From an uncultured bacterium (GTDB lineage Bacteria > Cyanobacteriota > Vampirovibrionia > Gastranaerophilales > Gastranaerophilaceae): 64,000 nucleotides of DNA. A program made the position numbers and the translations under genes. Below the pieces are notes generated by a model. It had not been told where the DNA came from. It was given only the letters and a program-made list of their open reading frames with translations, and did not search any database. Of this stretch, positions 26,500 through 43,473 are shown piece after piece. Location: NCBI GenBank assembly GCA_948433295.1, contig CAOJDT010000001.1:1869-65868 (forward strand). The letters run 5' to 3'. Position 1 is the stretch's first letter; each line of letters opens with the position of its first letter.

Positions 26500-26522
26500 G
26501 TAGGAGCAGTTTGTCAATTGCT
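26500..26522 (+). repeat. Left copy of the 23-bp perfect direct repeat bracketing the island
   Basis: GTAGGAGCAGTTTGTCAATTGCT, identical to 43451-43473. Weaker similarity continues for about 16 bp (cttgtaaa-gtaaca vs cttgcaaaaataaca). Confidence 0.9.
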
Positions 26523-26599
26523 TGTAAAGTAACACTCTAGATGATTATTTGTAACAGTAAAAACGAGTATTTGAAATTTATAAATATAAACTAAATTTT

Positions 26600-28078
26600 C
26601 TATTCAAAAATTTGCACTATTTTATTATACAATTCTATATTCCCAACTACAACAATTTCTAATTTGTTTATTGCGCGAGTAATTTGCTGAAAAAACATTT
26701 TTAAAGGAGAGTATGGATTATGAGTAATTTTTCTTGCTTTTAATATATCATCTTCATCGTAATAAAAATGGGAATCCAAAACTGTTATTACATTTTCAAA
26801 TTCTTGTCCTATAACTTGATGAGAAGTCCCTATGGTAGAAAAATCATATTTGTGTGCATCGCACAAAGGCGAATAAAAGCCGGTATTTGGAGTATATGAT
26901 ATATAAGAATAATCCTTTTTTGATTGTATATATTGTTTAGCCTCTTGTATGTTATTAAAAAATGTTATGTTAATATTTTGATCTGAAACTTTTATATGGT
27001 GCTTTCTTTTTAAATCTAATAAGACTATGATAAAATTTGCTAGATCCTTATTCGTTCTTATTTTTCCAGTTAATTGAAATTTGGTTACATTAGAAACATC
27101 AATAGCCCACCCCTCGTTATTATTTAGTGTTTGTTTTTTATCCCCACTCATTATAAGTATAGAATTATTTTTTGAAATATTTGATATAATTTCATCAAAT
27201 TGCTTTTTATTATTCATTCGTTGCACTTCATCAATAACAACAATATCTGGAGGAGTATTTTCAAAAATCGCTTTCCAATTCTTTATTGGACAAATATTCC
27301 ATTTAAAATCTTCACATAGGGTAATATGTCCGTTATTTAAGTTCCCTACATGAATAAGAGAAACCTTATGCCCAGTTTTCATATATTTTTTTACTATACT
27401 ATAAGTTAATAATGTTTTACCACTCCCAGCTTCACCCGTAATCAAAAAGTATTTATGACCATTATTAATGCTTTTTTCTATTTTTTTCTCAATCTCTTCC
27501 TGTTCATTAGTTAAAAAATATTCTCCACTGATAAATTCTTGTGTTTTGTTAAATGGTGATATTAAATAATTACTAGGAATAAATATTTTATCGGGGTTAT
27601 CTGTTATTATATTATTTTTTGTTTGTTCTTTTAAAACAGTGATAACTTTTTGAAAATCACATTGTTTAAGTTCATTATTATCATCTAGTTTCCATATAGT
27701 GTTATCTTGTGCAACATATGTATATAAATACATTTGCTTATTTAAAAAATTTAAATAATATTTATTTTTAATAAGTTGGTTTTGAATTTTTTCTGTATGT
27801 TCACTTTTTAACTCTATATTCAGAACACTACTATCACTAAATCGTAATAAATCAAATTCTTTTCCTATTTGAGGAATAGAATAGCCGAAATAAAAGTTAT
27901 TAAAGTTTTCAATTGAAATTTTATATGATTGTGCTTGTAATATAAATTTCTCCAAAGATTCAATATCAACAATTTTAATTTCGTTACCACAAAAATTAAA
28001 ACTCTTATCTTTTATACAATGAGTTAATTTATTGTGTTCGTATATTTCGACGAGACTTTTTAAATTTATTGCTTTCAT
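26600..28078 (-). CDS. PD-(D/E)xK nuclease-like N-domain + DUF2075 P-loop ATPase/helicase-like protein
   Basis: N-terminal EFDLLRF...VLNIELK (D...ExK pattern), Walker A ITGEAGSGKTLLTY, Walker B VVIDEVQRM. Confidence 0.7.
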   Translation of the reverse strand: MKAINLKSLVEIYEHNKLTHCIKDKSFNFCGNEIKIVDIESLEKFILQAQSYKISIENFNNFYFGYSIPQIGKEFDLLRFSDSSVLNIELKSEHTEKIQNQLIKNKYYLNFLNKQMYLYTYVAQDNTIWKLDDNNELKQCDFQKVITVLKEQTKNNIITDNPDKIFIPSNYLISPFNKTQEFISGEYFLTNEQEEIEKKIEKSINNGHKYFLITGEAGSGKTLLTYSIVKKYMKTGHKVSLIHVGNLNNGHITLCEDFKWNICPIKNWKAIFENTPPDIVVIDEVQRMNNKKQFDEIISNISKNNSILIMSGDKKQTLNNNEGWAIDVSNVTKFQLTGKIRTNKDLANFIIVLLDLKRKHHIKVSDQNINITFFNNIQEAKQYIQSKKDYSYISYTPNTGFYSPLCDAHKYDFSTIGTSHQVIGQEFENVITVLDSHFYYDEDDILKARKITHNPYSPLKMFFQQITRAINKLEIVVVGNIELYNKIVQIFE

Positions 28079-28167
28079 ATAGTTATTGTAGCATAAGAAA
28101 TTCCGTTAAATACTGTATTTACATGCTTAATGTTTCTTAATATATTTATTGTAAAATGAGGTGAATT

Positions 28168-29760
28168 ATGACTTTTAATATAAAAGATTTTCAGAATAAA
28201 CTTTGGAAGACCGCTGATGATTTACGTGCAAATTCAAGTTTAAAATATAATGAATTTTCTACTCCGGTATTGGGATTGATATTTTTACGCTTTGCAGATT
28301 ATAGATTTCAAAAAGCTAAACCTGAAATAGAAAAATTAAAAACTTCATCTCGACGAGCTTTTGATGAGAAAAATGCTTATCAAGCACGAGGGATTCTGTT
28401 TGTACCGGAAAAAGCATCTTTTAACTATTTATTAAACTTGCCGGAAAGTGAGAGTATTGCAAAAGCGTTAAATGAGGCAATGTCATTAATTGAAGATGAA
28501 AATCCTATCTTAAAAGGTGTTTTGCCAAAAGGTTATGCGAGGATTCCTGATGATTTGTTAGTTGCTACAATGAAAGTATTTGCTGATGTAGATTTTGATA
28601 GAGAAAATGGGGATGTATTTGGTAAAGTTTACGAATTTTTCTTGGGCAAATTTGCTAGTTCAGAAGGTCAAAAAGGCGGAGAATTCTATACTCCGACTTG
28701 TTTAGTAAAATTGCTTGTTGAAATTATGAAACCATTCCATGGTAATGTATATGACCCAGCCTGCGGTTCAGGTGGTATGTTTGTCCAAACTGCCGAATTT
28801 GCCAAAAGAGAGAATAAAGATGAAGATAAGTCTGTCAACGATTTAATTACGGTAGAAGGACAAGAAAAAACAGAAGAAACAGTCAGATGGTGCAAGATGA
28901 ACCTTGCTGTGCATGGACTTGAAGGTGATGTAAAGCAAGCAAATAGTTTTTATGACGATGTTTTTGATTCGGTTGGGAAATATAATTTCGTACTTGCTAA
29001 TCCTCCATTCAATGTTGATGGTGTAGATAAAGAAAGACTAAAAGGAGATAAAAGATTTCCGTTTGGTTTACCAAAAGCTGATAATGCGAATTATTTATGG
29101 ATACAGATGTTTTACTCAGCATTAAAGACTCCGAAAGATGGCGAAAACGCACGTGCTGGTTTTGTAATGCCAAACTCTGCAAGCGATGCAAGACAAACTG
29201 AACAAGCTATAAGAGAAAAAATTATTAAAGATAACGCAGTTGATGTTATGATATCCGTGGGAAGTAATATGTTTCACAACGTAACCTTACCTTGTACTCT
29301 TTGGTTTTTAGATAAAGGAAAGAAAAATACAGACAGAAAAGATAAGGTTCTTTTTCTTGACGTAAGAGGAATTTATAATCAAATTGATAGAGCACACAGA
29401 GAATTTACTGATGAACAGATAGAATTTATTACAAATATTGTAAAACTTTATCGTGGTGAAAAACCTGATTATAAGTGGGGTAGTAAAAAATTAATATTAG
29501 AAAACTTCCCTAATGAAAAGTATCAAGATGTTAAAGGCTTGTGCAAAGTCGCAACCATTGAAGAAATAGAAAAACAAGGTTGGAGTTTGAATGCCGGTCG
29601 ATATGTCGGGGTGGCAGAAACCGAAGAAGAAAACTATGTTTTTGAAGAAAAACTCCAAGAATTAAATTCTGAACTTGAAAAGTTAAATAAAGAAGCAAAA
29701 GACCTCGAAAACAATATTGCACATAATATTAAAGAATTGTTAAGTCTGGGGGTAAAATGA
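28168..29760 (+). CDS. hsdM: Type I restriction-modification system methyltransferase subunit
   Basis: HsdM N-terminal helical domain, AdoMet motif DPACGSGGM, catalytic NPPF (LANPPFNV). Confidence 0.9.
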   Translation: MTFNIKDFQNKLWKTADDLRANSSLKYNEFSTPVLGLIFLRFADYRFQKAKPEIEKLKTSSRRAFDEKNAYQARGILFVPEKASFNYLLNLPESESIAKALNEAMSLIEDENPILKGVLPKGYARIPDDLLVATMKVFADVDFDRENGDVFGKVYEFFLGKFASSEGQKGGEFYTPTCLVKLLVEIMKPFHGNVYDPACGSGGMFVQTAEFAKRENKDEDKSVNDLITVEGQEKTEETVRWCKMNLAVHGLEGDVKQANSFYDDVFDSVGKYNFVLANPPFNVDGVDKERLKGDKRFPFGLPKADNANYLWIQMFYSALKTPKDGENARAGFVMPNSASDARQTEQAIREKIIKDNAVDVMISVGSNMFHNVTLPCTLWFLDKGKKNTDRKDKVLFLDVRGIYNQIDRAHREFTDEQIEFITNIVKLYRGEKPDYKWGSKKLILENFPNEKYQDVKGLCKVATIEEIEKQGWSLNAGRYVGVAETEEENYVFEEKLQELNSELEKLNKEAKDLENNIAHNIKELLSLGVK

Positions 29761-31016
29761 AATTAAATGATTTTTGTTATATCAATCCAGCAGAACAGTT
29801 GAATCGCAATGAAGAATATGAATTTATAGAAATGGCTGATTTAACTCCAGGAGATAGATACGTTTTTTCAAAACAAAAAAAAATATTTAATGGTAGTTTT
29901 TCTAAATTTTCCAATAAAGACACTTTGATGGCAAAAATTACTCCTTGTCTAGAGAATGGAAAAATATCACAATATATTGGAGAAAATAAAGCTTTTGGTT
30001 CTACGGAATTTAATATTTTTAGAGAAAAAGAAAATGTTTCGAATGCTGATTACTTATATTATTTAGTTAGCTCTACCATTGTAAAGGAACCTGCAATTAA
30101 AAGTATGTCAGGAGCAACTGGTAGACAAAGATCAAATTTAGATGAAATAAAACAAATAAATGTACCTGACTTCAATATAGCAATTCAAGAAAAAATAGCA
30201 AAAATTCTTTCAAATTACGATGATTTGATCGAAAACAACAATAAACGCATTAAGATTTTAGAAGAAATGGCACAAAAAATCTATAAAGAATGGTTTGTTG
30301 ATTTCAAATTCCCAGGACATGATGTTGCGACTTTCAAACAAACTAACCTTGGTATAATTCCAACCGATTGGGATTGTAAACCAATAGGAGAATTACTAAA
30401 ACACAAAATTGGTGGAGGTTGGGGTAATGAAGAAAAAGATCAAAAATATACAGAAAGGGCCTATGTTATTCGTGGAACCGATATTCCATACGGAAGAGAA
30501 GGTAATATTCAGAATTGCCCTTTACGATATCATACGAGTTCTAATATTAAAACTCGTTTATTACAAACTAATGATATTGTATTTGAAGTATCTGGGGGCA
30601 GTAAAGGACAACCTGTCGGAAGAGCATTGTTATTAAATAAAAATTTATTTAATCAATTTAAAGATAATGTTATTTGTGCAAGTTTTTGTAAGTTATTAAG
30701 AACTGATGTCGAACAAATCGTGCCAGAGTTATTATATTTACACCTGTTAAATATTTACAATAATGGAGAAATAGAAAAATATCAAACACAATCAACCGGT
30801 ATAATTAACTTTAAATTTACATTCTTTTTAGAAAGCGAGCAAATACTTGTGCCAAGTACCGATATTCAGGAATTATTCAAAAAAATAGCTGTACTTATTT
30901 TTGATGAAATATCATTGTTGGGTTATAAAAATCAAACTCTAAAGCAAACCCGTGATCTTCTTTTGCCACGCTTGATCTCCGATGAAATTAATGTTGAAAA
31001 TATGGAGATTTCGTAA
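29757..31016 (+). CDS. hsdS: Type I R-M specificity subunit
   Basis: Two target-recognition domains are separated by the conserved helical spacer (LIENNNKRIKILEEMAQKIYKEWF), with a C-terminal LLPRLISDE. It has a 4-nt ATGA overlap with hsdM. Confidence 0.85.
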   Translation: MKLNDFCYINPAEQLNRNEEYEFIEMADLTPGDRYVFSKQKKIFNGSFSKFSNKDTLMAKITPCLENGKISQYIGENKAFGSTEFNIFREKENVSNADYLYYLVSSTIVKEPAIKSMSGATGRQRSNLDEIKQINVPDFNIAIQEKIAKILSNYDDLIENNNKRIKILEEMAQKIYKEWFVDFKFPGHDVATFKQTNLGIIPTDWDCKPIGELLKHKIGGGWGNEEKDQKYTERAYVIRGTDIPYGREGNIQNCPLRYHTSSNIKTRLLQTNDIVFEVSGGSKGQPVGRALLLNKNLFNQFKDNVICASFCKLLRTDVEQIVPELLYLHLLNIYNNGEIEKYQTQSTGIINFKFTFFLESEQILVPSTDIQELFKKIAVLIFDEISLLGYKNQTLKQTRDLLLPRLISDEINVENMEIS

Positions 31017-31053
31017 TTTATAAATATTTTATGTTTTGTTTATAATATAAAAC

Positions 31054-31869
31054 ATGGCAAGAAAAAATATTTTTGAAATTATAGAAGAAAAATATGATCT
31101 AAAAGAAGAAATTGGCAAAATTGATTTCTTGTTTAATAATGCTCTTCTAATCATTCATAATAATTTAACTTTCCAACAGGAGCAAGGAAATGTTGAAGCT
31201 GTTGTACAGAACATGTTGTTTTTTAATTGGAAACAGCGTGGTTCGTCTTTAAATTGTGAAGAAGTTCGCAGAAAATTAGATATTGATTTAAATAAGTTCG
31301 AAAATGAAGATATTATAGTTCGCTTAGAATATTATTTAAACATTATTAGTCTGGTAAATACTAAATTAATGTATCCAAATTGTCAAAAGACTCAACAATT
31401 CGTTATGCTGGAAAAGAATATTGAAATTTTACTAGATCATTTAAATTACGAATATCTAGATATTAAAGAAGAGGAAAAAATTCTTTTAGTTCCTAAAAAT
31501 CCAGCTGCAACTTCAGTTGCAGAAATATCAACGAAAGATACTGCTATAGCAATATTAATGTACAATCATTCCTCATTAAAAGGTAATTTAAGTCAAAAAC
31601 AGAGTTTGTTGTTAAAAATATACATAGAGTATGAAAAATTGCTTAAAAAACCAATTGATGGATTTTCAGAATTTTTTGATAAAACTAAAGGTTTAATAAA
31701 TAAATTAAATATCAAGCACGACAATAAAAAAGAAATTTCAGATATAGATAATATTCAATTGGAAGAATGGTATGATGAATTATATCAACTACTATTATTT
31801 TGCGTTTTAATAAAAGATAATATTGAACGAAAAAATAAAGCAGGAAATTTTTTAAAAAGTTTAAAGTGA
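31054..31869 (+). CDS. Hypothetical protein embedded in the type I R-M operon (271 aa)
   Basis: Clean ORF 38 nt after hsdS, helical and Lys/Glu-rich. No recognisable motif. Confidence 0.5.
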   Translation: MARKNIFEIIEEKYDLKEEIGKIDFLFNNALLIIHNNLTFQQEQGNVEAVVQNMLFFNWKQRGSSLNCEEVRRKLDIDLNKFENEDIIVRLEYYLNIISLVNTKLMYPNCQKTQQFVMLEKNIEILLDHLNYEYLDIKEEEKILLVPKNPAATSVAEISTKDTAIAILMYNHSSLKGNLSQKQSLLLKIYIEYEKLLKKPIDGFSEFFDKTKGLINKLNIKHDNKKEISDIDNIQLEEWYDELYQLLLFCVLIKDNIERKNKAGNFLKSLK

Positions 31870-31910
31870 TTCACCTAATTTAACAAAACAGATGAAAACA
31901 TAAGCTTGCC

Positions 31911-32016
31911 TTGTATGTAAAAATAATGATAAAATTACACGCAAAGCAATTTGTGTTACTTTAGTTACTTACAAATTTGATTGTATGTAAAAATATTCAT
32001 AAAATTGCATGCAAAT
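31911..32016 (+). repeat. Two ~36-bp imperfect direct repeats with 70-bp spacing upstream of fic
   Basis: ttgtatgtaaaaataatgataaaattacacgcaaag (31911) versus ttgtatgtaaaaatattcataaaattgcatgcaaat (31981), about 31/36 identical. Confidence 0.8.
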
Positions 32017-32033
32017 TATATTCATGGTATAAT
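32005..32033 (+). promoter_or_regulatory. Putative sigma70-type promoter for fic-hsdR
   Basis: TTGCAT (32005-32010), 17 nt, then TGgTATAAT (extended -10, TATAAT at 32028-32033). An AGGAGA RBS and ATG 32053 follow. Confidence 0.55.
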
Positions 32034-32052
32034 TGTTTTAATAGGAGACAGT

Positions 32053-33162
32053 ATGACATATACACCTTCAAAACCTAATAAAATAGCTGATATTGAGATC
32101 GATTTTAGGCAATTTATATCTCTTATAGGTAAATCCCATTCGGCATTGTCTAATTATAATGGAGCATTGAGTCATTTAGTCAATCCTCAAATTCTTTTGG
32201 CACCAATGACGACAAAAGAATCAGCAATGTCATCTAAAATAGAGGGAACGCAGGCTACATTTACAGAAGTTTTGCAACATGATGCAGGAGAAAATTTTAA
32301 TACATATAAAAGCCAAGAGATTCAAGAAGTGCTTAATTATCGTTCAGCAATGACTTATGCTACAGAGTTATTGCAAGAAAGGCCTTTTATTCACTTGAAT
32401 ATGATTAGAGATATACACAAGGTTTTATTAAGTGGAGTAAGGGGTGAAAATAAAGCCAGAGGAGAATTTAGAAAAATTCAAAATTGGATAGGTCCTAAAA
32501 ATTCAACAATAGAAACCGCTTCTTTTGTTCCTCCTGCACCTAATGAAATTATTGATTATCTTGATGAATGGGAAAAATTTATTAATTCTGATTTTGAAGA
32601 TTTACTTGTGCAATTAGCGATTGTACATGCTCAATTTGAAATTATTCACCCCTTTCTAGATGGTAATGGAAGATTAGGCAGACTTTTAATTCCTATATTT
32701 TTGTATTCAAAAGAGTATCTTGCCCAGCCAATATTCTATTTAAGTGAATATTTTGAAACTCACAGAGAAGAATATTATACCCATTTAAGAAATATAACAG
32801 TAGAAAATAATTGGCAAGATTGGATTAAATTCTTTTTAAATGCAATTGTGGAACAATCAAAAATTAACACAGCTAAAATTAATCAAATATTAGAGCTTTC
32901 ACATAATATGAAAATTATTATACAAGAAACAACGAAATCTCAATATACAGCTAATATACTTGATACTATTTTTTCAAAACCAATTTTTTCAACAACAACA
33001 TTTTCAAAATTTGCAAATATTCCTAACAGGAAAACCGCAATTTCTATTTTGCAAAAACTTACAGAAAAAAATGTTATTCAATTAACAAGAGAAGCAAGTG
33101 GAAATAGAAGTAATTTGTATACATTCCAAAATTTGCTTGATATTATTGACGGAGACAACTAA
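32053..33162 (+). CDS. fic: Fic-family protein (AMPylase-type) with C-terminal wHTH
   Basis: Canonical Fic motif HPFLDGNGRLGRLL. The start is taken at ATG 32053 after AGGAGA, not the tracked TTG 31981. The stop overlaps the hsdR start (TAATG). Confidence 0.85.
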   Translation: MTYTPSKPNKIADIEIDFRQFISLIGKSHSALSNYNGALSHLVNPQILLAPMTTKESAMSSKIEGTQATFTEVLQHDAGENFNTYKSQEIQEVLNYRSAMTYATELLQERPFIHLNMIRDIHKVLLSGVRGENKARGEFRKIQNWIGPKNSTIETASFVPPAPNEIIDYLDEWEKFINSDFEDLLVQLAIVHAQFEIIHPFLDGNGRLGRLLIPIFLYSKEYLAQPIFYLSEYFETHREEYYTHLRNITVENNWQDWIKFFLNAIVEQSKINTAKINQILELSHNMKIIIQETTKSQYTANILDTIFSKPIFSTTTFSKFANIPNRKTAISILQKLTEKNVIQLTREASGNRSNLYTFQNLLDIIDGDN

Positions 33163-36100
33163 TGCATAAACTATCAGAAGAAGCATTTGAATTTGATTTG
33201 ATGACTGAGTGTGAACAAAAACTCGGATATAATCTTTTTGATGCCTCGTCTGAAATTATTGGAGGCGAAAATTCTACATTTGGTCGACAAACAACAGATG
33301 AAGTAATTCTTTCCAAAAATCTTCGCACTGCTCTTAAACGATTAAACCCAGAATTACCACAAGAAGCTTTAGATAATGCTTATTATGAATTAACGCAAGA
33401 TTTATCAACAAAGACTGCAATTGGTGCAAATAAGTACGTTTATTCTTTGTTAAAAGATGGTGTAAAAGTTCAATTTAAAGATAATAATGGAATAGATACA
33501 ACAGACATTGTTAAAGTCATTGATTTCCAAGAACCTCGCAATAATGAATATTTGCTTATTAGACAGTTTAAAATATCAGGTGAAAGGTATAACTGTAGAG
33601 CTGATTTAATATTATTCGTTAATGGTTTACCTTTAGTATTTATCGAATTAAAAGCAACTCATAAACATATTGAAAATGCCTTTAATGATAATATTACACA
33701 CTATAAAAAAGAAATTCCTCAAGTGTTTTGGTACAATGCATTTATTATAGTATCAAACGGAACGGATGCAAAATTCGGTACAATAACATCTAAATGGGAG
33801 CATTTTTCTGATTGGAAAAAGATTGACAACAATGACTCTAAGGGGATTATTTCAGCAGATACTTTAATGAAAGGTATGTGCAAGCCTGAAAATTTGTTAG
33901 ATATTATAGAAAATTACACCCTTTATCAAGAAGTTAAAGGTGGAATGATTAAAATCTGTGGAAAAAATCATCAGTTTTTAGGTGTTAATGCTGCTATAGA
34001 AAATTTTAAAATAAATACAGATGGAAAACTTGGTGTTTTTTGGCATACACAAGGCAGTGGAAAAAGTTTTTCAATGATATTTTTTGTTCAAAAAATACTT
34101 AGAAAGATTAAAGGCAATTGGACTTTTGTTGTTGTTACAGATAGATGCGATTTAGACGAACAAATTTATAAAAACTTTGTTTCAACAGGAGCAATTACAG
34201 AACAAAATGTTCAAGCTACAAGTAGAGAACATTTAAAACAGTTATTAAAAGAAGATCATAGAACAATTTTTACAATGATTCAAAAATTTGGCACAGAAAA
34301 AAAAGGACAAAATTTTGAACAGATTTCTGATAGAAATAACATTATTGTAATAACTGATGAGGCACACCGTACACAATATGGCACCTTAGCAATGAATATG
34401 AGAGAAGCTCTCCCAAATGCTAAATTTATTGCTTTTACCGGCACACCTTTAATGAAAGATGATGAAAAAACAAAGCTTGTGTTTGGTGATTATGTAAGTA
34501 AGTACACATTTAAACAGTCAATAGAAGATACTGCAACTGTTCCTTTGTATTACGAAGCCAGAATACCTGAAATGCAGATAATAAATGAAGATTTAGAAAA
34601 ACAGCTTCAAGATATTATTGATTCTGCTGATTTTTCAGAAGAACAAGAAGAAGAATTTGAAAAAGAATATGTAAATATGTATCAAGTAATTACAAGAGAA
34701 GACAGGCTTGATGCAATAGCAAAAGATGTAGTTGAACATTTTATAAATCGTGGTTTTATGGGTAAAGCAATGTATGTTGCAATAGATAAAGCTACTACAA
34801 TAAAAATGTATAATAAAGTTAAAGTTGAATGGGATAAATATATTAAAGTTCTTGAAAACAAACTAACAACAGCCAACGAAGATAATAAAGAAGTTTTGCA
34901 AAATCAAATTGATTACATGAAAGAAACTGATATGGCGGTCGTTGTTTCTTCTTCTCAAAATGAAGATGAACAAATGAAACAAAAAGGGGTTGATATTACA
35001 CCACACAGAACAAGAATGAAAAAAGAAGATTTAGCCACTAAATTTAAGGATAAAGAAGATAAATTAAGATTGGTTTTTGTTTGTGCAATGTGGGTTACCG
35101 GTTTTGACTGCCCAACTATTTCAACCCTTTATCTTGATAAAATTTTAAAAGAACATACACTAATGCAAACGATTTTAAGAGCAAATAGAGTTGCATTAGG
35201 TAATTACAATGGTTTAATTGTTGATTATATTGGCATATTTAAGGCATTACAAAAAGCATTAGCAATATATGGTGAACCTGCTGATGGAAGTGATTCAGAA
35301 GAAGAACCAGCGGAAACAAAAGCTGAATTGATTAAGCTTTTAGATTCAGAAGCTACAAAAATGAAAGATTTTCTTAATTCAAAAAATATTGATGTTGATA
35401 CAATATTTGATACAAGAGCTTTAGAATGTATAAAAAGAACAGAGGAAGCTGTTAATACAATATTAGAAACAGAAAAGGGCAAAACGGAGTTTCTAAAAGG
35501 AACGCAAAATCTAAAAGCATTATTTAAAGCAATTTTGCCTGATAGTGAAGCAAGAAGATTTGCAAAACTGGTTTTTGTTTGTTCAATTCTTTGTGCAAAA
35601 ATAAGAGAGGTTACAATTAAATCTATTGATAATACGGAAATCAAACAACTTGCTCAAAAAGTAGAAGAGCTGCTCAATGAATCAATAAATCTTAGATCTT
35701 ATGAAATAAAAGCCGGGGAAAAACTTGATTTAAGTAAAATAGATTTTGAAGAATTGCAACGAAGAATTTTAAAAGAAAAACAACGAGCATTGTTAGAAAA
35801 GCTTAAATCAACAATTAGTTCTAAACTTTCAATGATGTTAAAAATTAACGATATGAGAAAACATTTTCAAGAAAAATTTGAGCAGATTATTGATGAATAT
35901 AATGCAGGAAAGCTAACAATGGAGCAAATGTATGTTCAGTTAGTAGCCTTAACAAATGATTTAACTGCAGAAGAAAAACGCCATCTCGGTGAAAATTTAA
36001 CAGAAGAAGAACTCGCAATTCTTGATATTTTAACTAAACCTGAACCAAAACTTTCAAAAAAAGAATTTGAAACAGTAAAAGCTGCTGCGCAAAGGCTGGT

Positions 36101-36311
36101 AAAAGTTATAAAAAAAGAAAAATTAGTTTTGAATTGGCGTAAGAAACAATCTACAAGAGCAAAAGTTAAAGAAGCAATTGAAACAATTTGTGATGAAACG
36201 TTGCCTGAAATATATAATAAAGATTTATTTCAAGAAAAATGTAACCACATATATGACCATTTTTATGATTGTTATAATAATAGCAATGATAACATATACA
36301 ATGTAGCATAG
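33162..36311 (+). CDS. hsdR: Type I restriction endonuclease subunit R
   Basis: 1049 aa. N-terminal HsdR_N nuclease region (DLILFVNGLPLVFIELK), helicase motif I (HTQGSGKS), DEAH-like VITDEAHRTQ, C-terminal helical domain. Confidence 0.9.
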   Translation: MHKLSEEAFEFDLMTECEQKLGYNLFDASSEIIGGENSTFGRQTTDEVILSKNLRTALKRLNPELPQEALDNAYYELTQDLSTKTAIGANKYVYSLLKDGVKVQFKDNNGIDTTDIVKVIDFQEPRNNEYLLIRQFKISGERYNCRADLILFVNGLPLVFIELKATHKHIENAFNDNITHYKKEIPQVFWYNAFIIVSNGTDAKFGTITSKWEHFSDWKKIDNNDSKGIISADTLMKGMCKPENLLDIIENYTLYQEVKGGMIKICGKNHQFLGVNAAIENFKINTDGKLGVFWHTQGSGKSFSMIFFVQKILRKIKGNWTFVVVTDRCDLDEQIYKNFVSTGAITEQNVQATSREHLKQLLKEDHRTIFTMIQKFGTEKKGQNFEQISDRNNIIVITDEAHRTQYGTLAMNMREALPNAKFIAFTGTPLMKDDEKTKLVFGDYVSKYTFKQSIEDTATVPLYYEARIPEMQIINEDLEKQLQDIIDSADFSEEQEEEFEKEYVNMYQVITREDRLDAIAKDVVEHFINRGFMGKAMYVAIDKATTIKMYNKVKVEWDKYIKVLENKLTTANEDNKEVLQNQIDYMKETDMAVVVSSSQNEDEQMKQKGVDITPHRTRMKKEDLATKFKDKEDKLRLVFVCAMWVTGFDCPTISTLYLDKILKEHTLMQTILRANRVALGNYNGLIVDYIGIFKALQKALAIYGEPADGSDSEEEPAETKAELIKLLDSEATKMKDFLNSKNIDVDTIFDTRALECIKRTEEAVNTILETEKGKTEFLKGTQNLKALFKAILPDSEARRFAKLVFVCSILCAKIREVTIKSIDNTEIKQLAQKVEELLNESINLRSYEIKAGEKLDLSKIDFEELQRRILKEKQRALLEKLKSTISSKLSMMLKINDMRKHFQEKFEQIIDEYNAGKLTMEQMYVQLVALTNDLTAEEKRHLGENLTEEELAILDILTKPEPKLSKKEFETVKAAAQRLVKVIKKEKLVLNWRKKQSTRAKVKEAIETICDETLPEIYNKDLFQEKCNHIYDHFYDCYNNSNDNIYNVA

Positions 36312-36374: not shown

Positions 36375-36602
36375 ATGGAAAAAGTAGGTTTTAATATTAC
36401 GGACAAAGAATTTAAGTTATTAAGCAGAAAAACTGAGGCGGTTTATAATATAGCTGTTGTTGCTGATTATTTCTGTACCACACAGCAGGAAATAGAAGAG
36501 TTATACAATTTGACACCGATTATTAAAAATTTAAGAGCGGAAGCTGACTTTTTGAATGCATTTTTCATTCAAGCAGAAGGAAATAAAGATTCTTTAGTTT
36601 AA
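36375..36602 (+). CDS. Hypothetical protein (75 aa)
   Basis: AAGGAGG RBS 6 nt upstream of the ATG. No recognisable family. Confidence 0.35.
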   Translation: MEKVGFNITDKEFKLLSRKTEAVYNIAVVADYFCTTQQEIEELYNLTPIIKNLRAEADFLNAFFIQAEGNKDSLV

Positions 36603-36714: not shown

Positions 36715-37125
36715 TTAAAAATCAAAATCCCATTTTTCGTCATCATTGAAGAAATCTTCTTCGGTATCTTGTTTTTTGATGGCAATATTGAGTAATTCTT
36801 CTAAAGTCAGTTTTTTAGTTTTTGGCTTAACCATTTCTTCAGTTATGTTTAGAAATTTATTCAGTCTTGAAACATCAATTTGCTGATTATTTGCCAAATC
36901 CTCGTTAAAATCATCAAGCATTTGGCGAACTAATTGATACATATCGTAATTAGTCAATGTTTGTTTCTTTAAAAATTCTTTTCGTTTTTCACCCCAATTA
37001 CCTTCTGCTTTCCATCGACGAACAGTCCTATCACTTACCCCAAGTCGTTTTGCGACTCCGACTTCGGTTATAAACTGCTCAACGTACATTTTTTCTGCTT
37101 TATCAAAATATTTATTTTTCTTCAT
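36715..37125 (-). CDS. YjcR/terminase-small-like HTH protein (136 aa)
   Basis: N-terminal HTH VGVAKRLGVSDRTVRRWKAEGNWGEKR, resembling phage terminase small-subunit/YjcR-type HTH. 4-nt overlap with the upstream transposase gene. Confidence 0.5.
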   Translation of the reverse strand: MKKNKYFDKAEKMYVEQFITEVGVAKRLGVSDRTVRRWKAEGNWGEKRKEFLKKQTLTNYDMYQLVRQMLDDFNEDLANNQQIDVSRLNKFLNITEEMVKPKTKKLTLEELLNIAIKKQDTEEDFFNDDEKWDFDF

Positions 37126-39077
37126 AAAGCCTTCGCACTCATTGCTTCCATTTCAATTCGCTCTTTTTCCAAAATTTTATCAGTTTCAAACAAATACAAT
37201 TTTTCTTCCTGTTTATTATCTTCTAAAAATACAGATAAATCCTGTCTGCCAAATGCTTCCATCTCTTTGTTTTTCTGAATAGCTTTATCCATATTAGTAT
37301 TGGCAATTTTTGAAACTTTAATACTCTTTTTATAATCTTTATTGCTGGAATTGTAAGCTGCTTTATAGTTTTCATATTGTTCTTCAAGTGGAATTTCACG
37401 AGTTTGTTTGATGTAAGACTTTGTAATTTTCAGATTTCGTTTCTTTATTGATAATGCTTCTTTAAACTCCTCTTTTGAAACTTTATCTGCGTGTAATGCC
37501 ACAACCGCTTTAACTGCTTTAACTGTTCCGACAAACTCATCATTATCTGCCTTAAAAGCCCACGCTTCTTTGTAATCCTGAACATCCCGACGAAGATATA
37601 CTTTCAAACCTGTTCTTGTAATCATCCAGTCTGCCCAGTAAGTAATATTGAGTTGCCTGTCTTGAATACCGTTTCGCCCAATTGTAAAATTACGAGAAGT
37701 CCTCATACAAAATAGTTTCAACGCATCACGTGACGGTGTGATTTTTTCGGTGTATTCATTGTAAAACAATTCGTCAGGACAAATTCCGTTTAGATTTTTA
37801 CCGTTTGAAGGCTTTTTATTTAAAACATTCAGGATAAAATTATCAAATATTTTCTTAAAATCTTCAAATTGCATAATTTTACCGGCTTTAATTTCGTTTG
37901 CCAGTTTTTCAGGACGTTCGACGACATTTCCACCACGATAACCCACGCAATGTTTTGAGAGCAATTCTTTAATCTTTAGAAAATCCCTTTCTACCGGTTT
38001 TGTTTGAGCATTATATGGAAGTGCAAAATGTACATTAACATTCAATTCCTTTAACATTGCAGAAGTTTGACCTTTGCTGATATCAACCTTAAAATTTGAC
38101 CTGCCGCCCGCAAAATCCTTTGAGCGGTAATCTTTCCCGTTGTCAATAATCACATCTTTTGGCAAACCAAATTTTTGTGCTGCATAATAAAAAGACTGAA
38201 ATATAAAATCCGAATTAGGATTTTTTGTTTGCAAAACCCAACCGAGCCATTTACCGGATTTGTAATCTCGCCAAACCGTAACCCAAGGGAAAACGACTTT
38301 TCCATCTGAGTCAAAACAAGCAACATCAATCTGTGCATGATCTGATACCCAAACTTCATTGCAAGTTATATTTGAGTAATCTCTATCTATATACCCGCCA
38401 TATCTTCTATTCCAAGCAGATTGACCATATCGTGCCAAATAAATACCCTGTTTAGGAATCTCTTTATCAAGTCTGCGTTTGAAAGCCATAAAGCTCGGAA
38501 AAGTTTCTCTATCTGCATTAAATTCTCTTATTGCATAACCTAAAGTCAAATCCCAACAAGTTCTTAGAGAGGGTGCACTCTCAATCAGATATAAATTTTT
38601 AAAATATTCAAAATAATCATCTTGGACGGAACTTCCTCTTAAATGCTGCCCGTGACGTGATAACAACCCGTTTAAACCATACCTGAAATATCTTCTTCGC
38701 ATTTTTATAACTGACGAATAAGAGGTTGGTTCATTTGATTCGTTCCATTCTTCAATAAATTGCTTTAAATCGTTACCTTTTAACCCGTCAGAGTTTTCCA
38801 GTATTTCTAAATACTTTTCAGCCTGTTGTTTCGCCCAATTTGGGGCTTCCGAGTATTTAATATCCGAAAAACTTACTCCGAAATATTTATCTTGAACAAA
38901 ATCAGGAAGAGATTTTAACAGAATAAAATAATTTGCACACTTTCCTTTTTTTACAATTTTAAAGACAAATTTACCAACTCGACATTGTTTTTTAAGGGTT
39001 TGTTCACTCAAACCAATAATGCCTGCCGCGGTTTTAATATCTATCCATATATTTGTTTTGTCTTTTTTCTGTTTCAT
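37122..39077 (-). CDS. Mu-type (rve-fold) DDE transposase, 651 aa
   Basis: N-terminal Mu-like wHTH (IKTAAGIIGLSEQTLKKQCR). DDE triad context: VWVSDHAQIDV, VIIDNGKDYRS, YNAQTKPVERDF. Confidence 0.8.
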   Translation of the reverse strand: MKQKKDKTNIWIDIKTAAGIIGLSEQTLKKQCRVGKFVFKIVKKGKCANYFILLKSLPDFVQDKYFGVSFSDIKYSEAPNWAKQQAEKYLEILENSDGLKGNDLKQFIEEWNESNEPTSYSSVIKMRRRYFRYGLNGLLSRHGQHLRGSSVQDDYFEYFKNLYLIESAPSLRTCWDLTLGYAIREFNADRETFPSFMAFKRRLDKEIPKQGIYLARYGQSAWNRRYGGYIDRDYSNITCNEVWVSDHAQIDVACFDSDGKVVFPWVTVWRDYKSGKWLGWVLQTKNPNSDFIFQSFYYAAQKFGLPKDVIIDNGKDYRSKDFAGGRSNFKVDISKGQTSAMLKELNVNVHFALPYNAQTKPVERDFLKIKELLSKHCVGYRGGNVVERPEKLANEIKAGKIMQFEDFKKIFDNFILNVLNKKPSNGKNLNGICPDELFYNEYTEKITPSRDALKLFCMRTSRNFTIGRNGIQDRQLNITYWADWMITRTGLKVYLRRDVQDYKEAWAFKADNDEFVGTVKAVKAVVALHADKVSKEEFKEALSIKKRNLKITKSYIKQTREIPLEEQYENYKAAYNSSNKDYKKSIKVSKIANTNMDKAIQKNKEMEAFGRQDLSVFLEDNKQEEKLYLFETDKILEKERIEMEAMSAKAL

Positions 39078-39087
39078 AAATACTTTA

Positions 39088-39105
39088 AGTTTAAATTGCT
39101 TGTAA
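39088..39105 (+). repeat. Partial third copy of the island junction sequence
   Basis: agtttaAATTGCTTGTAA versus the left junction agtttgtcAATTGCTTGTAA (26508-26527). There is a 12-nt exact match at 39094-39105 = 26516-27. Confidence 0.7.
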
Positions 39106-39337
39106 TTCTTTTTAAAGGGTGTGAAATTTTACTTTGTCAACTTTAGGACAAAAGATTCTTCTGAAAATTCAGTTATAATCAGATTTTTTATTTTTAGGAA
39201 TTTTTTGCATTTTATATTAAAAGCCTTATTGTTATTGCGTTATATCCATATTCAAAAATTGTCCCATTTTTAATGTAGAAATGTTACATAATTATATTTT
39301 GATATTGGGATAAATTAAATAAGGCACAAATTCTTGA

Positions 39338-39353
39338 TTGGGAAATTTCCCAA
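39338..39353. promoter_or_regulatory. Perfect 16-bp palindrome (operator-like) in the intergenic gap between transposition modules
   Basis: TTGGGAAATTTCCCAA, seen directly. It lies about 100 bp downstream of the stop (39452) of the 224-aa ORF, in the 374-bp gap upstream of the 651-aa transposase gene (start 39077). Confidence 0.5.
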
Positions 39354-39451
39354 AAGCTGAATTAAAATGATATTATTGAATTTCAGCATAAATTTTCTAA
39401 GATAATATATGCCGAAAAATACCGTTTTTTCGTTAAAAATTAGGGAAAAGT

Positions 39452-40126
39452 TTATTGCGAAAAATTAAGCAAATTGTTTTTTAGGTCAAAATAAAGTTCA
39501 TTGAAATTCTTATTTCTGCGCCAAAGAGTTTCAGCAATTTTGCAATTTAGATTATGAGCATTTTGATTATGAGTCAAATTTCTTGTGAGGTAACAATAAA
39601 TTTTAGAAAATTCGGTTTTATCATTTGGATTTAAAGGTCTATCTTCAGGACTTTGCAATAAAATATCCGATACAAAAACTTGTTTGTTATAAATATATAA
39701 ATAAACTTCTTGGTCAAAAAACATTCTGCGTCTTGCATTTTGAGGTTCTTGAACATAAAAATCTCTAAGCCGTTTTTCTTGTCGCTCATAAATAAGCGTT
39801 CTAAAAATTGTGTAAAATTTTTGCACTTGATCCTCACCCACTGATAAAATATGTGAGGCTTTGGTTGTGCTAATTGATTCGCAAAAACACCTTAAAACTA
39901 AATCAATTGTCACTTTGGGGTAATATTTAAAAATCGAATATTTCGCAGAAATACTTTGTTTTTTAGAGTAAAAATATATTCCATTTTCTTGTAATAATTT
40001 ACCTTCAGAAATTAATTCGTTAATTATCGGAAGTAATTTGTCTGGCTCAAGCTCTGATATTGTAGATATTTCATCAAGCGTAAATTTGTTTAGACGTTTG
40101 CAAAGAAGTAAGATTTTGTCTTTCAT
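39452..40126 (-). CDS. Hypothetical wHTH-like protein (224 aa), candidate target-selection/accessory factor
   Basis: The N-terminal ~55 aa look like a winged helix (LNKFTLDEISTISELEPDKLLPIINELISEGKL). It overlaps the ATPase gene end by 53 nt. No TniQ zinc ribbon is recognisable. Confidence 0.45.
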   Translation of the reverse strand: MKDKILLLCKRLNKFTLDEISTISELEPDKLLPIINELISEGKLLQENGIYFYSKKQSISAKYSIFKYYPKVTIDLVLRCFCESISTTKASHILSVGEDQVQKFYTIFRTLIYERQEKRLRDFYVQEPQNARRRMFFDQEVYLYIYNKQVFVSDILLQSPEDRPLNPNDKTEFSKIYCYLTRNLTHNQNAHNLNCKIAETLWRRNKNFNELYFDLKNNLLNFSQ

Positions 40127-40802
40127 CTAATATATTCCTTAAATTTTCTTCGTTTAATTCTGTAATATCATTTGTTTTTGCTAATTTTTCAACCTTGTTT
40201 ATCAATTTAACTATCTGTCTAAATTGATTATGTCGTGTCGCTAAATACTCAAGTCCATCAGGACTTATAGGAATTTCCGTAAGTTCCGATACTATTTGTT
40301 TAATATCCTGACTTTCATAACTTTTAAATTTAAAAGCCTTATAAATTCTATCTTTTAAATGAGGATAACGAGATAATTTTTTATCAATGTTTGCCATTCC
40401 AACTAAAACTAACGGACAATTTGTTCTATCATGCAAATCTCTCAAAATTTCAATGACATTATTATTTATAAGATAATCAACTTCATCAATAATTATAGTT
40501 TTAGGAGTTTGCCTTAATTTATTTTCAATCATATTAAAAGTTTCTTGGGAGTGCCAATATGCTTCTTCCCCAAGTTCATCTGATATTTCTGAAAGTAACC
40601 ATCTAACTGACATCCCTTTTGTTGCTCTAACATACACGCAATCATTTTTGAAAGTCCACCATTTTATCGTTTCAGATTTTCCAAGTCCATACTCACCATA
40701 AACTAGTGCAATTTTAGGAATGTTCGGCGGAAGTGATTTTAATTCCTCCATGAATCCTATAAATTCTTTGACGTTTTTTGTTTTTACAAAAGTTTTTCTC
40801 AT
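40074..40802 (-). CDS. MuB/TniB/TnsC-like AAA+ transposition ATPase (242 aa)
   Basis: Walker A VYGEYGLGKSE, Walker B IIIDEVDYL. It lies immediately downstream of the 737-aa transposase gene, with an AAGGAG RBS. Confidence 0.75.
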   Translation of the reverse strand: MRKTFVKTKNVKEFIGFMEELKSLPPNIPKIALVYGEYGLGKSETIKWWTFKNDCVYVRATKGMSVRWLLSEISDELGEEAYWHSQETFNMIENKLRQTPKTIIIDEVDYLINNNVIEILRDLHDRTNCPLVLVGMANIDKKLSRYPHLKDRIYKAFKFKSYESQDIKQIVSELTEIPISPDGLEYLATRHNQFRQIVKLINKVEKLAKTNDITELNEENLRNILDERQNLTSLQTSKQIYA

Positions 40803-40805
40803 GAG

Positions 40806-42974
40806 CTAATCTCCTTCTTGGTTGCTCGCATTAAACGGGGCTACAAACGAAAACTCACTGTTTCCGTTTTCCGCCCTCTGCTCGCAATCCGCATATAAAT
40901 TAATGTATTCATCACTTTTCATATAATTAACAAGCCATTTTCTATCTTCTTGATTTGTTGTTCCGTTGCTCATTAGCCATTCAAATTTTTCATAATCAGA
41001 ATTAAAAAATGGTCTGTTCATTTGCTGTTCACGAGGTGTTTGTTTGCGTTCACGTTTTAATTTCACAACAGAAAGTTTTTGAACATTTTTCATTTTCTCT
41101 TCATTTACCCCTTCAATTTCTAAAACTTCTGCATCTTCTGTCGGATAATATTTGAGAAAGTCCTTTTTGACCTTATTAAACTGACGTTTTTGTTTTTGAA
41201 TTCGTTGTTTAAATTCTTCCATATCTTTGACAGTTCCGAGATGATTTACCATCGGGTGAATTTTTTCTTCCTGACGAGCCACGCATAAAAACTCACCTTT
41301 CATTGAATAAACATAGATTTTGGATAAATCAAAAAGTGAATACCTGATAAATACTGTTTCCCTTAAATCAAGTAAAACCTCGCTTCTGTAATGCAAACCA
41401 AAGAATGTTATTCCATGTCTATTAATCGTTCTCGTTTCGGTTTTCATCATCAAATCGTTTAAAATATTTTTATCAATTTCTTGCTGCTTGGGGGCTCGCG
41501 TTAAACGGGTATCGCTACCGCTTTCACCCTCTGCTCGCCTCCGCTTTTGAACATCATTTAACATCTCTTGAATAGTTTTTGAACTATCATTAGGACAAGG
41601 TTTTGAGTTATGGTAATCAATCCAACAATCAATATATTTAATTACTTCTTGAACGGTTGGAATATAATTATTAGTTAACTTTTTATGCATTTCTCGGTGG
41701 AGTTTTTCACCTCGTTTCAACCACGCCGGCTTATCTTCAATTGAAGTCCCAATGTATGAAATCATCATCTTTTCAAACTCTTCTTGAAATTCTAAGAAAA
41801 ATCTCTCGATTACTTTCGCTCTCGCATTGTATGGTTTAGCGAATACCGATTTAATTCCTAAGTTTGAATAAACACCGTTAAATCCTGCCTCATCAAAATC
41901 TGTATGTTGGAAGTATTTTGCTTTAAACGCTTTTCCGTTATCTTGGTACACAACTTTTGGAATTAAACCGAGATTTAAAATCGCATTACGCAATGCACTT
42001 GCAATGCATTGAGTATTTTCGGTCATCATAATTTCATACCCAACAAGTGCTGTTGATTTCCAATCTAAAAAGCCAACGAGTGTCGCTCTCGTTGGCTTGC
42101 CTGTAAATGGATTAATAACTTGAAAATTAAGAACGTGTCCGTCTGCGATTAAGACATCACCGACTTCCAGTTTTGAAATATCCCTCTCAATATATGCTTC
42201 CACTTTATCGTGGTATGCTTTTTCACCCTCTCTCATTAATACCCATTTTGAATAATTTGTCTTTTTAAAGTGTTCGGCAAATCTTCTGAAAGTAAGATTG
42301 CAAGGTATGTTTTCATATCCTCGTTTTTCTAAAACGTGCTTTGTTAGATTAATTGCCTTCCCGATGCTGAACTGATTAGGATGCAGAAGGTATTTTAAGA
42401 ATATTTGTTTCATTTCATTATTTAATATTGTGTTGTACTCATTCTGTTGGGATGTCTTTCTTTGCGGCAAAAGTCCGTTTGTACCATAATTTTCATAGGC
42501 TTTAACCCAACGATGCAATGTTCCAATTGAAATTGAACCGACAAATTTGTATATTTGAGGTAAATACATTCCGCTGTTATACAAATTTAAAAAGATTTCA
42601 TCTGCTTCTTTCTTGGTTTGATATTTTGTTCGCAAGTTAAATAATGCCGTTACGATATCGACTCTTGCTAATGCGTTTAACCTTGAGTTCTCTGAAATAA
42701 AATTCACTTTATTTTCTACAGGAATTAAAGATGTTGATTTAATTTCTTCATCTTCAAGTTTTTCCTGAATTTCAGACTCTAAACTTGAATACAAAATCTC
42801 ATAAGAAGTTCCTCCATTAACTTTAACTTCCCGAGCGATGTATTTTCCTTTTTGAATAGCAATCCTAATAGAGCGGGTACTTTTTAACCCTTTTACTTCT
42901 GCTATTCGCTTTATGTCTATATAGTGTTCTGTTTTGTCTTGGATTATTGACGGTTCAAAATCTTTGCACTCCAT
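40806..42974 (-). CDS. Mu/TnsB-type DDE transposase (about 722 aa from ATG 42974)
   Basis: Mu-like N-terminal DNA-binding domains. DDE context: VLIADGHVLNF, VVYQDNGKAFKA, YNARAKVIERFF. The tracked GTG 43019 start is replaced by ATG 42974, which is preceded by AAAGGAAAAA. Confidence 0.8.
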   Translation of the reverse strand: MECKDFEPSIIQDKTEHYIDIKRIAEVKGLKSTRSIRIAIQKGKYIAREVKVNGGTSYEILYSSLESEIQEKLEDEEIKSTSLIPVENKVNFISENSRLNALARVDIVTALFNLRTKYQTKKEADEIFLNLYNSGMYLPQIYKFVGSISIGTLHRWVKAYENYGTNGLLPQRKTSQQNEYNTILNNEMKQIFLKYLLHPNQFSIGKAINLTKHVLEKRGYENIPCNLTFRRFAEHFKKTNYSKWVLMREGEKAYHDKVEAYIERDISKLEVGDVLIADGHVLNFQVINPFTGKPTRATLVGFLDWKSTALVGYEIMMTENTQCIASALRNAILNLGLIPKVVYQDNGKAFKAKYFQHTDFDEAGFNGVYSNLGIKSVFAKPYNARAKVIERFFLEFQEEFEKMMISYIGTSIEDKPAWLKRGEKLHREMHKKLTNNYIPTVQEVIKYIDCWIDYHNSKPCPNDSSKTIQEMLNDVQKRRRAEGESGSDTRLTRAPKQQEIDKNILNDLMMKTETRTINRHGITFFGLHYRSEVLLDLRETVFIRYSLFDLSKIYVYSMKGEFLCVARQEEKIHPMVNHLGTVKDMEEFKQRIQKQKRQFNKVKKDFLKYYPTEDAEVLEIEGVNEEKMKNVQKLSVVKLKRERKQTPREQQMNRPFFNSDYEKFEWLMSNGTTNQEDRKWLVNYMKSDEYINLYADCEQRAENGNSEFSFVAPFNASNQEGD
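40817..40892 (-). repeat. GC-rich hairpin repeat, copy B (inside the 3' end of the transposase ORF)
   Basis: Coding-strand sequence GCGAGCAGAGGGCGGAAAACGG...CGTTTGTAGCCCCGTTTAATGCGAGCAACCAAG. It shares GCGAGCAGAGGG...CCCGTTTAAYGCGAGC..CCAAG with copy A. Confidence 0.8.
41487..41544 (-). repeat. GC-rich hairpin repeat, copy A (inside the transposase ORF)
   Basis: Coding-strand sequence GCGAGCAGAGGGTGAAAGCGGTAGCGATACCCGTTTAACGCGAGCCCCCAAG. It is read in a different frame from copy B. Confidence 0.8.
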
Positions 42975-43450
42975 TTCGTTTTTCCTTTCGTAAAAACTAC
43001 ATTCCGTCAGATTTTTCACAGGGACGGCGTTCGCTAACGCTCAGCCTTGTCAAAATCCGCCATCGTACACACACATTAACTCATTTTAAACCCAATTGGA
43101 ACACCATTTCCGAGCTTTGTGTCGTTTTGTGTTGATAAAATTCATATCCGACCTTTGAGCAAAAATTACCGACCTCCAAAATGAATTTGAAATTACTCAC
43201 ATAGTCCTCAAAAGTCAAATAATCGTTTTACCCGTACAATTTAGTAAAACTGGGAGAATGCAGGACTGTAATTAGGTTTTAAAAATAAAATATTGGAATT
43301 TTGAGCAACTTTCTGATACCCAAAAGAGACTTTTGAGTAATTTGCGTAACGCATAAAATGATTATTCCCGACCGCTCAAACTCAAACACCAAGCCAACTC
43401 TGCCGAATAATACTTCTATGCGTTCAGATAAAATGTCCTGTTAAAGTACA
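42975..43450. other. ~476-nt noncoding, repeat-rich region between the transposase start and the island tip (candidate transposon end and/or ncRNA locus)
   Basis: No credible ORF. It has three CCGACC motifs (43148, 43169, 43368) and TTTGAG(C/T)AA motifs in both orientations (43154, 43299, 43331; inverted near 43207 and 43372). Confidence 0.5.
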
Positions 43451-43473
43451 GTAGGAGCAGTTTGTCAATTGCT
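43451..43473 (+). repeat. Right copy of the 23-bp perfect direct repeat
   Basis: GTAGGAGCAGTTTGTCAATTGCT, identical to 26500-26522. Confidence 0.9.

Follow-up and report, generated by a model that had tools for sequence, protein, structure and literature searches.

Insertion beside transfer RNA (tRNA) genes has been described for Tn7-like elements with TnsD and for type V-K CRISPR-associated transposons (CASTs) with homing spacers (PMC9881144, PMC10293859, 10.1101/2021.02.06.429022), and both the carriage of cargo and clades without TnsA are on record for Tn7-like elements (PMC8649781). The locus analysed here lies in a 64,000-nucleotide stretch of DNA (the window) from an uncultured bacterium of the Gastranaerophilales (GenBank assembly GCA_948433295.1, contig CAOJDT010000001.1, positions 1,869 to 65,868 of the forward strand). 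It is a 16.9-kb island beside a tRNA-Ser(cga) gene, bracketed by a perfect 23-bp direct repeat, and its sequence assigns it to a Mu-superfamily DDE transposon and prophage-derived family of gut Gastranaerophilales. Comparison with relatives indicates that the repeat consists of host DNA duplicated at this one insertion only and that no new integration chemistry has to be invoked.

The two copies of the 23-mer GTAGGAGCAGTTTGTCAATTGCT occupy 26500-26522 and 43451-43473. The perfect repeat had been reported in the first-pass annotation, and it is indeed exact at both positions, with no third copy in the window at up to three mismatches; in a shuffle control, two matches were reached in none of 100 shuffles. 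The copies directly abut the two tips of the island (26523-43450; 16,928 bp), which read TGTAAAGTAACA from 26523 and, as the reverse complement, TGTACTTTAACA at 43450 (…TGTTAAAGTACA in the forward reading). These sequences agree at 9 of 12 positions and give the island TGT…ACA (TGTA…TACA) tips. The imperfect inverted tips of a DDE transposon had likewise been recognised, and their positions are upheld by three comparisons described below (with L178, between L104 and L114, and of a distal terminal motif). By contrast with these claims, the weaker similarity said to extend ~16 bp rightwards from each copy amounts to 6 of 20 ungapped matches, which is the chance level. The island tip lies 78 bp from the tRNA-Ser(cga) gene and the right 23-mer copy 55 bp from it, with a terminator hairpin between. 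Nearly the whole island is coding, and its G+C content is ~0.30 vs ~0.37 in the surroundings. The repeat copies, the ends, the landmark tRNA gene and the transposition genes are as follows.

26500..26522, no strand: left copy of the 23-bp repeat, an exact match, missing from the flanks of all relatives; host (target) DNA outside the element
26523..26599, plus strand: distal (cargo-side) transposon end, with the tip TGTAAAGTAAC and two subterminal repeats of ~20 bp ending ..GATTATT and ..GAGTATT, as read from the sequence
37122..39077, minus strand: A2, second MuA-like DDE transposase, 651 aa, D-D-E intact (Pfam DDE_2, HTH_Tnp_Mu_2, Mu-transpos_C; phrog_310, 6e-82)
39452..40126, minus strand: p224, conserved 224-aa protein, always after B1 and present in 102 loci
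40074..40802, minus strand: B1, MuB/TnsC-like AAA+ ATPase, 242 aa (Pfam AAA_22, TniB 4.2e-9; phrog_296 'DNA transposition protein', 6.7e-45)
40806..42974, minus strand: A1, MuA/TnsB-like DDE transposase, 722 aa from the ATG at 42974, D-D-E intact (Pfam Mu-transpos_C, HTH_Tnp_Mu_2, rve; phrog_310, 1.5e-111)
42975..43450, minus strand: proximal (tRNA-side) transposon end, with the tip TGTACTTTAACAGG on the minus strand; found by motif scan, tip kept in dozens of loci
43451..43473, no strand: right copy of the 23-bp repeat, host DNA, 55 bp from the tRNA gene
43529..43616, minus strand: tRNA-Ser(cga), which marks the insertion site (ARAGORN, Rfam tRNA), with the terminator hairpin at ~43495-43527

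Relatives were retrieved as 80 genome loci via A1 and 63 metagenome loci via A2, and the 23-mer was sought with at most four mismatches in all 188 fetched loci, 2.28 Mb in total. The 23-mer is not the common dispersed repeat that, according to the first-pass annotation, would have refuted its reading: no locus of a related genome contained it, and apart from the window it was seen solely in contigs of this species, again at these two junctions. One relative (L178; ENA ERZ27297498, contig k141_177222, 1-15910) carries the same element and cargo in another genome, 83 bp downstream of a tRNA-Arg(acg) gene, and is 98.8% identical to the window over 30924-40814 (9.9 kb). Its homology to the window ends exactly at 43450, and the flank that follows (CAAACCATCTG…) does not contain the 23-mer. 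Because the homology stops at the tip without the 23-mer, the latter is host DNA and not part of the element. In a further relative (L015), homology likewise ends at the tip.

The normal length of the target duplication was read from L104 and L114, which represent one 14.5-kb element inserted at tRNA-Arg and at tRNA-Met, with similarity extending from tip to tip and none beyond. Both carry perfect 5-bp duplications at the tips (TAAAT in L104 and GTGAT in L114), so the duplication normal for the family is 5 bp. The best explanation is that the family moves by Mu/Tn7-type 3'-OH strand transfer of its TGT…ACA ends with a 5-bp stagger. An atypical chemistry, as had been considered earlier, is not supported for the family, given the exact 5-bp duplications of complete relatives. 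A distal terminal motif of ~37 bp, CTGTTACAAATAATC..CTTTACA, is shared by the window element with L026, L056, L104, L112 and L114, and the flanks diverge beyond it. The complete relatives L026 and L112 show no matching duplication, as would be expected of reciprocal or stacked products. An exact search of flank against downstream sequence for long repeats in the relatives returned only chance matches of 8-9 bp, and exact look-ups of A1 and of the AbiO, p75 and hsdM genes of the island for other far-junction contexts found L178 alone. A generic scan for distal ends by 5-mer duplications was too noisy, and L104 and L114 alone were retained. In one sub-family, a recurrent 4-kb TGT…ACA unit with GCTTG on either side was indistinguishable from inherited chance similarity.

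On balance, we lean towards an origin of the 23-bp repeat in two separate insertion events at points 18 bp from each other, followed by recombination inside the element that brought their junctions together. The tRNA-side junction would stem from an insertion with a 5-bp duplication at 74-78 bp from the tRNA gene, and the far junction from an independent insertion of a related copy that duplicated the bases at 56-60 bp. Homologous recombination within the element, either as strains exchanged alleles or as transduced DNA was repaired through flank homology, would then join both junctions and leave a repeat of exactly 18 + 5 = 23 bp. The model predicts a parental right junction in which GTTAAAGTACA is followed by TTGCTATACTTGC (k-mer GTTAAAGTACATTGCTATACTTGC), a parental left junction in which AACAATAGTTTGTAGG is followed by TGTAAAGTAAC (k-mer AACAATAGTTTGTAGGTGTAAAGTAAC) and an empty site reading AACAATAGTTTGTAGGAGCAGTTTGTCAATTGCTATACTTGCAAAAATAAC. 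At the far end of the L178 element, a 5-bp duplication would be expected, CAAAC on the plus strand of the window. The virions of phage Mu package host flanks together with the phage genome, and the prophage forms of the present family, described below, would make exchange between strains plausible, although this step is speculative.

Several observations are consistent with this model. The tRNA-proximal edge of the repeat, at 55 bp, coincides with the commonest offset in the family and the observed tip, at 78 bp, falls within the usual range; as both are usual offsets, they fit two separate insertions. Insertion points at one site also vary among relatives: in a sister species, whose epimerase is 94% identical, the same element is found at the same tRNA-Ser(cga) site with tips that differ by 10 bp between samples (L163/L165 vs L164), and L112 and L136 differ by 20 bp in their offset at a common tRNA-Met site. 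In addition, the element is a mosaic. Between the window and L178, A1 and the proximal-end segment are 88-94% identical and the rest 98.8%, with a breakpoint near the A1/B1 boundary, and L104 and L114 show a similar division (88.8% vs 98%). The divergence of A1 and the proximal end from an otherwise near-identical element shows that the tRNA-side and far parts have separate histories, and its confinement to these parts in L178 implies a modular exchange of the transposase segment. The earlier idea of a mosaic island with a lost recombinase holds in another sense than was meant, in that the history of the A1 segment differs from that of the rest, but nothing suggests a lost recombinase.

A number of points weigh against this reading. 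It requires two insertions and a crossover, which the window itself does not prove, and all ~20 contigs of this species share the same two junctions. The species is present in the samples ERZ14864661, ERZ14864640, ERZ15043444, ERZ15043455, SRR14253251, SRR14253255, SRR15604537, SRR21266947, SRR29466476 and SRR32404275. Neither of the predicted parental junctions was found. The empty site was not found either: exact-protein look-ups of the flanking epimerase and hydrolase gave only filled or broken contigs, and in close homologues the site was occupied (sister species) or not syntenic. Moreover, the contig of L178 begins inside hsdS and does not cover the far junction, and a clean measurement of the duplication length comes from two relatives only (L104 and L114).

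Logan contigs assembled at k=31 (L009, L012, L002, L006, L096 and L099) break 29-33 bp inside both tips, from either direction. These breaks were considered as evidence for circles; they are better explained by end sequences shared with other elements in the same samples, which indicates that the terminal ~30-60 bp are common to other elements with different flanks and cargo.

Apart from two insertions joined by recombination, the repeat could have arisen in a single aberrant transposition, in which the strands were attacked 23 bp apart instead of 5 bp (by non-concerted or wide-stagger transfer) and gap repair duplicated the 23 bp. A perfect repeat that abuts both tips exactly looks like a true target duplication, all sampled strains share this single allele, and two different intact MuA paralogues acting on asymmetric ends might permit an unusual transpososome geometry. 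However, relatives with the same set of A1, B1, p224 and A2 give exact 5-bp duplications, and the position of the repeat's near edge at the commonest family offset fits two normal events. To our knowledge, no 23-bp stagger has been seen with Mu, Tn7, Tn5053 or Tn552 enzymes, which also counts against a single event, and we regard this explanation as rather unlikely. It is less probable still that the duplication is unrelated to the insertion position and reflects a repeat that the ancestral site already had, or later slippage or repair; no empty site is at hand to counter this proposal, but an unrelated duplication would not be expected to end, in each of its copies, exactly at a transposon tip.

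The two remaining proposals had both been raised in the first-pass annotation, and the evidence contradicts both. That the 23-mers are the attL/attR cores of a site-specific recombinase, whose gene has been lost or acts in trans, was suggested by their length and by their position near a tRNA gene, which resemble those of integrase-type islands. Nevertheless, as had been noted, the island encodes no tyrosine or serine recombinase: no island gene matches either family, and no room is left for one. The repeat does not overlap the tRNA gene, the element at tRNA-Arg in L178 shares this tip but adjoins an unrelated flank, the flanks of relatives, spread over 15 kinds of tRNA site, are likewise unrelated, complete relatives have 5-bp duplications, and the 23-mer is missing from the related-genome loci, all of which makes the att-core proposal highly improbable. 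That the element brings along a copy of its target site, for example for homing in the manner of the delocalised crRNA in type V-K CASTs, would accord with a repeat that adjoins the tRNA attachment site, as the homing spacers of V-K CASTs match tRNA sites. We give this idea next to no credence, because neither copy is included in the conserved tips, L178 (which has no 23-mer there) and L015 cease to match the window at the tip, and the island contains no CRISPR array, Cas gene or Rfam RNA.

The geometry of the insertion, in contrast to the length of the repeat, is a general property of the family. Among the 89 loci with enough upstream sequence, a same-strand tRNA gene ends no more than 1.2 kb upstream of A1 in 57, and in a further 18 a same-strand tRNA gene is found at a greater distance, with extra or stacked elements between. 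At the tRNA-associated loci the A1 end always points toward the 3' end of the same-strand tRNA gene, so that the Tn7-like arrangement first noticed in the window, with the transposase end facing the tRNA gene, holds across the family. The sites used represent 15 tRNA species (Met, four Ser, Arg, Asp, His, Ala, two Gln, Phe, Asn, Glu and Val), and near-identical element ends occur at different tRNA genes. The distance from tip to tRNA gene ranges from 34 to 100 bp and is most commonly 50-60 bp, and the DNA at the insertion points shows no relation between sites.

At several loci, truncated proximal ends are stacked head to tail right after the tRNA gene (L042:7320-7450, L105:4229-4290, L027:5390-5480, L139:4990-5080 and L150:5003-5090), with three TGTAATTTAACGGG starts in succession in L042; these stacks are arrays produced by repeated homing to one site. 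At another locus (L056:4560-4610), the distal tip of one element is followed by TA only and then by the proximal tip of an element of another sub-family. The window itself has a second candidate site, a tRNA-Arg(acg) gene at 54987-55060 on the minus strand, with no transposon tip downstream (54600-54986); it is apparently unoccupied, and tRNA-Arg(acg) is a site type used by the relatives L021, L024, L029, L038 and L178.

The homologues of A1 number in the thousands, and the close ones belong to metagenome-assembled genomes from the gut that bear the label Gastranaerophilales or Melainabacteria; a few copies of the family are present in IMG/VR. The order A1-B1-p224 is kept in 102 loci, and in 75 of these A2 follows within 1 kb, whereas 13 genome loci with at least 3 kb of downstream sequence have the A1-B1-p224 core without A2. 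About 20 of the 33 loci with enough downstream sequence have a Mu-like prophage gene set behind A2 (for example, L066:13854-21670), comprising a MuB-like ATPase with an N-terminal helix-turn-helix (HTH) domain (HTH_3), GemA, Mor, a nuclease, an amidase and tail-like genes, and this is a Mu-like prophage situated behind the A1-B1-p224 module. In the sub-family of the window, A2, an HTH protein, p75 and defence cargo stand in place of the prophage genes; this sub-family is evidently still mobile, judging from L104/L114 and L178. These Mu-type elements of human and animal gut Melainabacteria form a large and apparently undescribed family. In the literature searched, no account was seen of Mu-type elements that have two transposase paralogues and insert at many tRNA genes, which is no proof of novelty.

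Read from the tRNA side, the genes of the island are, on the minus strand, A1, B1, p224, a spacer, A2 and the HTH protein, followed by p75 on the plus strand and then by the cargo. The features that accompany the transposition genes are listed below.

26600..28078, minus strand: AbiO/Nhi-type defence helicase-nuclease, 492 aa, cargo (PADLOC AbiO 1.5e-146, Nhi 9.9e-141; Pfam SLFN-g3_helicase)
28168..31016, plus strand: type I restriction-modification genes hsdM (28168-29760) and hsdS (29757-31016), cargo (Pfam N6_Mtase, HsdM_N, Methylase_S; PADLOC MTase_I, Specificity_I)
31054..31869, plus strand: open reading frame (ORF) of 271 aa, cargo, at the same position in L178; no match in Pfam, NCBIfam, PHROGs or PADLOC
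31981..33162, plus strand: SoFic-type Fic protein, cargo (Pfam Fic_N, Fic; PADLOC SoFic 3.5e-111)
33162..36311, plus strand: type I restriction subunit hsdR, cargo (Pfam HSDR_N, SWI2_SNF2; PADLOC REase_I 1e-177)
36375..36602, plus strand: p75, conserved 75-aa ORF, backbone in this sub-family; at the same position in many relatives by tblastn, no family match
36715..37125, minus strand: 136-aa HTH protein, like small-terminase, DUF1804 and MerR DNA binders (Pfam Phage_terminase 1.1e-8, DUF1804; PHROG DNA-binding and TerS families)
39078..39451, minus strand: non-coding spacer of 374 bp upstream of A2, its position conserved in relatives (355-606 bp); no Rfam match

The cargo can be assigned to three defence systems, namely AbiO/Nhi, type I restriction-modification and SoFic. 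Both transposases have an intact D-D-E triad: the D-D-E residues of A1 align with those of MuA and ShCAST TnsB, and all three are kept in A2 when it is aligned with MuA (4fcy) and ShCAST TnsB (match 1.9e-8). A1 and A2 are 26% identical over the first ~440 residues, with the catalytic residues aligned. The best PDB matches of B1 are MuB (8xvb; 2.3e-6) and then VchTnsC (8e-4). A 127-bp segment at 42934-43060, directly after the ancestral A1 ATG, supplies a new N-terminus (MECKDFEP…); it is found in L020 and L100 and not in L178 and L163, and we take it to be a lineage variant and no disruption.

At the ends, candidate transposase-binding sites are provided by three subterminal repeats on the proximal side, ~19 bp long and of the type AACGCATAnAAnGATTATT (at ~43406-43424, 43348-43366 in inverted orientation and 43218-43236), and by the two on the distal side. 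The spacer upstream of A2 presumably holds the A2 promoter and 5' untranslated region (UTR). A 12-nt exact match, AATTGCTTGTAA, links this UTR (39094-39105) with the far junction (26516-26527), where it spans the end of the 23-mer and the tip. An internal end upstream of A2 was considered for this match (TTACAAGCAATT) and rejected, as the UTR copy is intrinsic to relatives elsewhere and its TTACA is not conserved; the match is probably due to chance.

To the left of the island lies an operon (23533-26339) with genes for a hexapeptide transferase, an FMN reductase, a flavodoxin and an alpha/beta hydrolase. Of these, the hydrolase was the one searched, and it has ~73% identical homologues in Bacteroides, Odoribacter and Butyricimonas, and synteny downstream of it is not kept in close relatives. 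The operon may itself have been horizontally acquired.

What selects the target in this family is suggested by position and conservation solely, which make p224 a candidate target selector. A profile of p224 built from 23 homologues had no significant match in Pfam or PDB and no TniQ match, and a single-sequence AlphaFold2 model reached a predicted local distance difference test (pLDDT) score of 36, too low for use; the notion that p224 is a TniQ protein has neither sequence nor profile support. As a tentative proposal, about which we are more doubtful than confident, the A1, B1 and p224 module would direct oriented insertion at ~50 bp beyond the 3' end of practically every tRNA gene, perhaps by recognition of the conserved T-arm, and A2, which in the prophage forms has its own MuB, would act in replicative transposition or as part of a heteromeric transpososome. 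On this view, repeated homing to one site would have left the 23-bp repeat as a by-product, and the elements would form an undescribed Mu-type family with Tn7-like safe-site targeting.

For the original observation, this outcome is deflating, as the long repeat gives no sign of new integration chemistry and is best regarded as a local side effect of repeated homing and recombination. It also carries a caution: where elements home repeatedly to one locus, a long flanking repeat need not be an att site. The family is noteworthy for other reasons, as it homes to the 3' flank of many tRNA genes without TniQ, TnsD or CRISPR, has two intact transposase paralogues and includes both defence-island transposons and Mu-like prophages. 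If p224 is truly a generic tRNA-gene selector, it would represent a new route of safe-site targeting and would connect transposable phages with Tn7-like elements.

Compared with the tRNA islands of tyrosine integrases, the island in the window has a similar tRNA neighbour, a direct repeat of ~20 bp and a G+C content below that of its surroundings, whereas it lacks an integrase, its repeat excludes the 3' end of the tRNA gene, its ends are transposon tips and its relatives have 5-bp duplications. The similarity to TnsA-less Tn7-like elements (the Tn5053/type V-K CAST clade) and to tRNA-targeting cyanobacterial Tn7-like elements with TnsD lies in organisation: a TnsB-type transposase is combined with an AAA+ regulator and a third protein, insertion is oriented, on a fixed side and a short distance downstream of tRNA genes, and 5-bp duplications (in relatives), defence cargo and stacking at the attachment site are shared. 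However, no TniQ/TnsD domain was detectable in p224 or any other island protein, and the window element has no TnsA ORF or domain, CRISPR-Cas or resolvase. It also differs from type V-K CASTs in the absence of Cas12k, Cascade, a CRISPR array or a homing spacer, as no Cas domain, array or Rfam RNA besides the tRNAs was detected. Closely related copies are present at many tRNA genes and not at one, and the distance to the tRNA gene is loose.

With Mu-like phages, the family shares the membership of A1 and A2 in the phage MuA family (phrog_310; Pfam DDE_2, Mu-transpos_C and HTH_Tnp_Mu_2) and of B1 in the MuB family (phrog_296), TG…CA ends with several subterminal repeats as predicted binding sites, 5-bp duplications in relatives (from which the window copy differs by its 23-bp repeat) and, in many relatives, a MuB-like ATPase, GemA, Mor, lysis and tail-like genes. 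In contrast to these phages, the window copy has no structural or other phage morphogenesis, lysis, GemA, Mor or second MuB genes and carries defence cargo instead, insertion is not near-random but takes a single orientation beside tRNA genes, and the family has two transposase paralogues and the additional conserved p224 after B1. In summary, the family behaves like a TnsA-less Tn7-like element from which TniQ is missing, and its proteins are closer to those of phage Mu, with A1, A2 and B1 falling nearer to the phage Mu families and the ATPase nearer to MuB than to TnsC.

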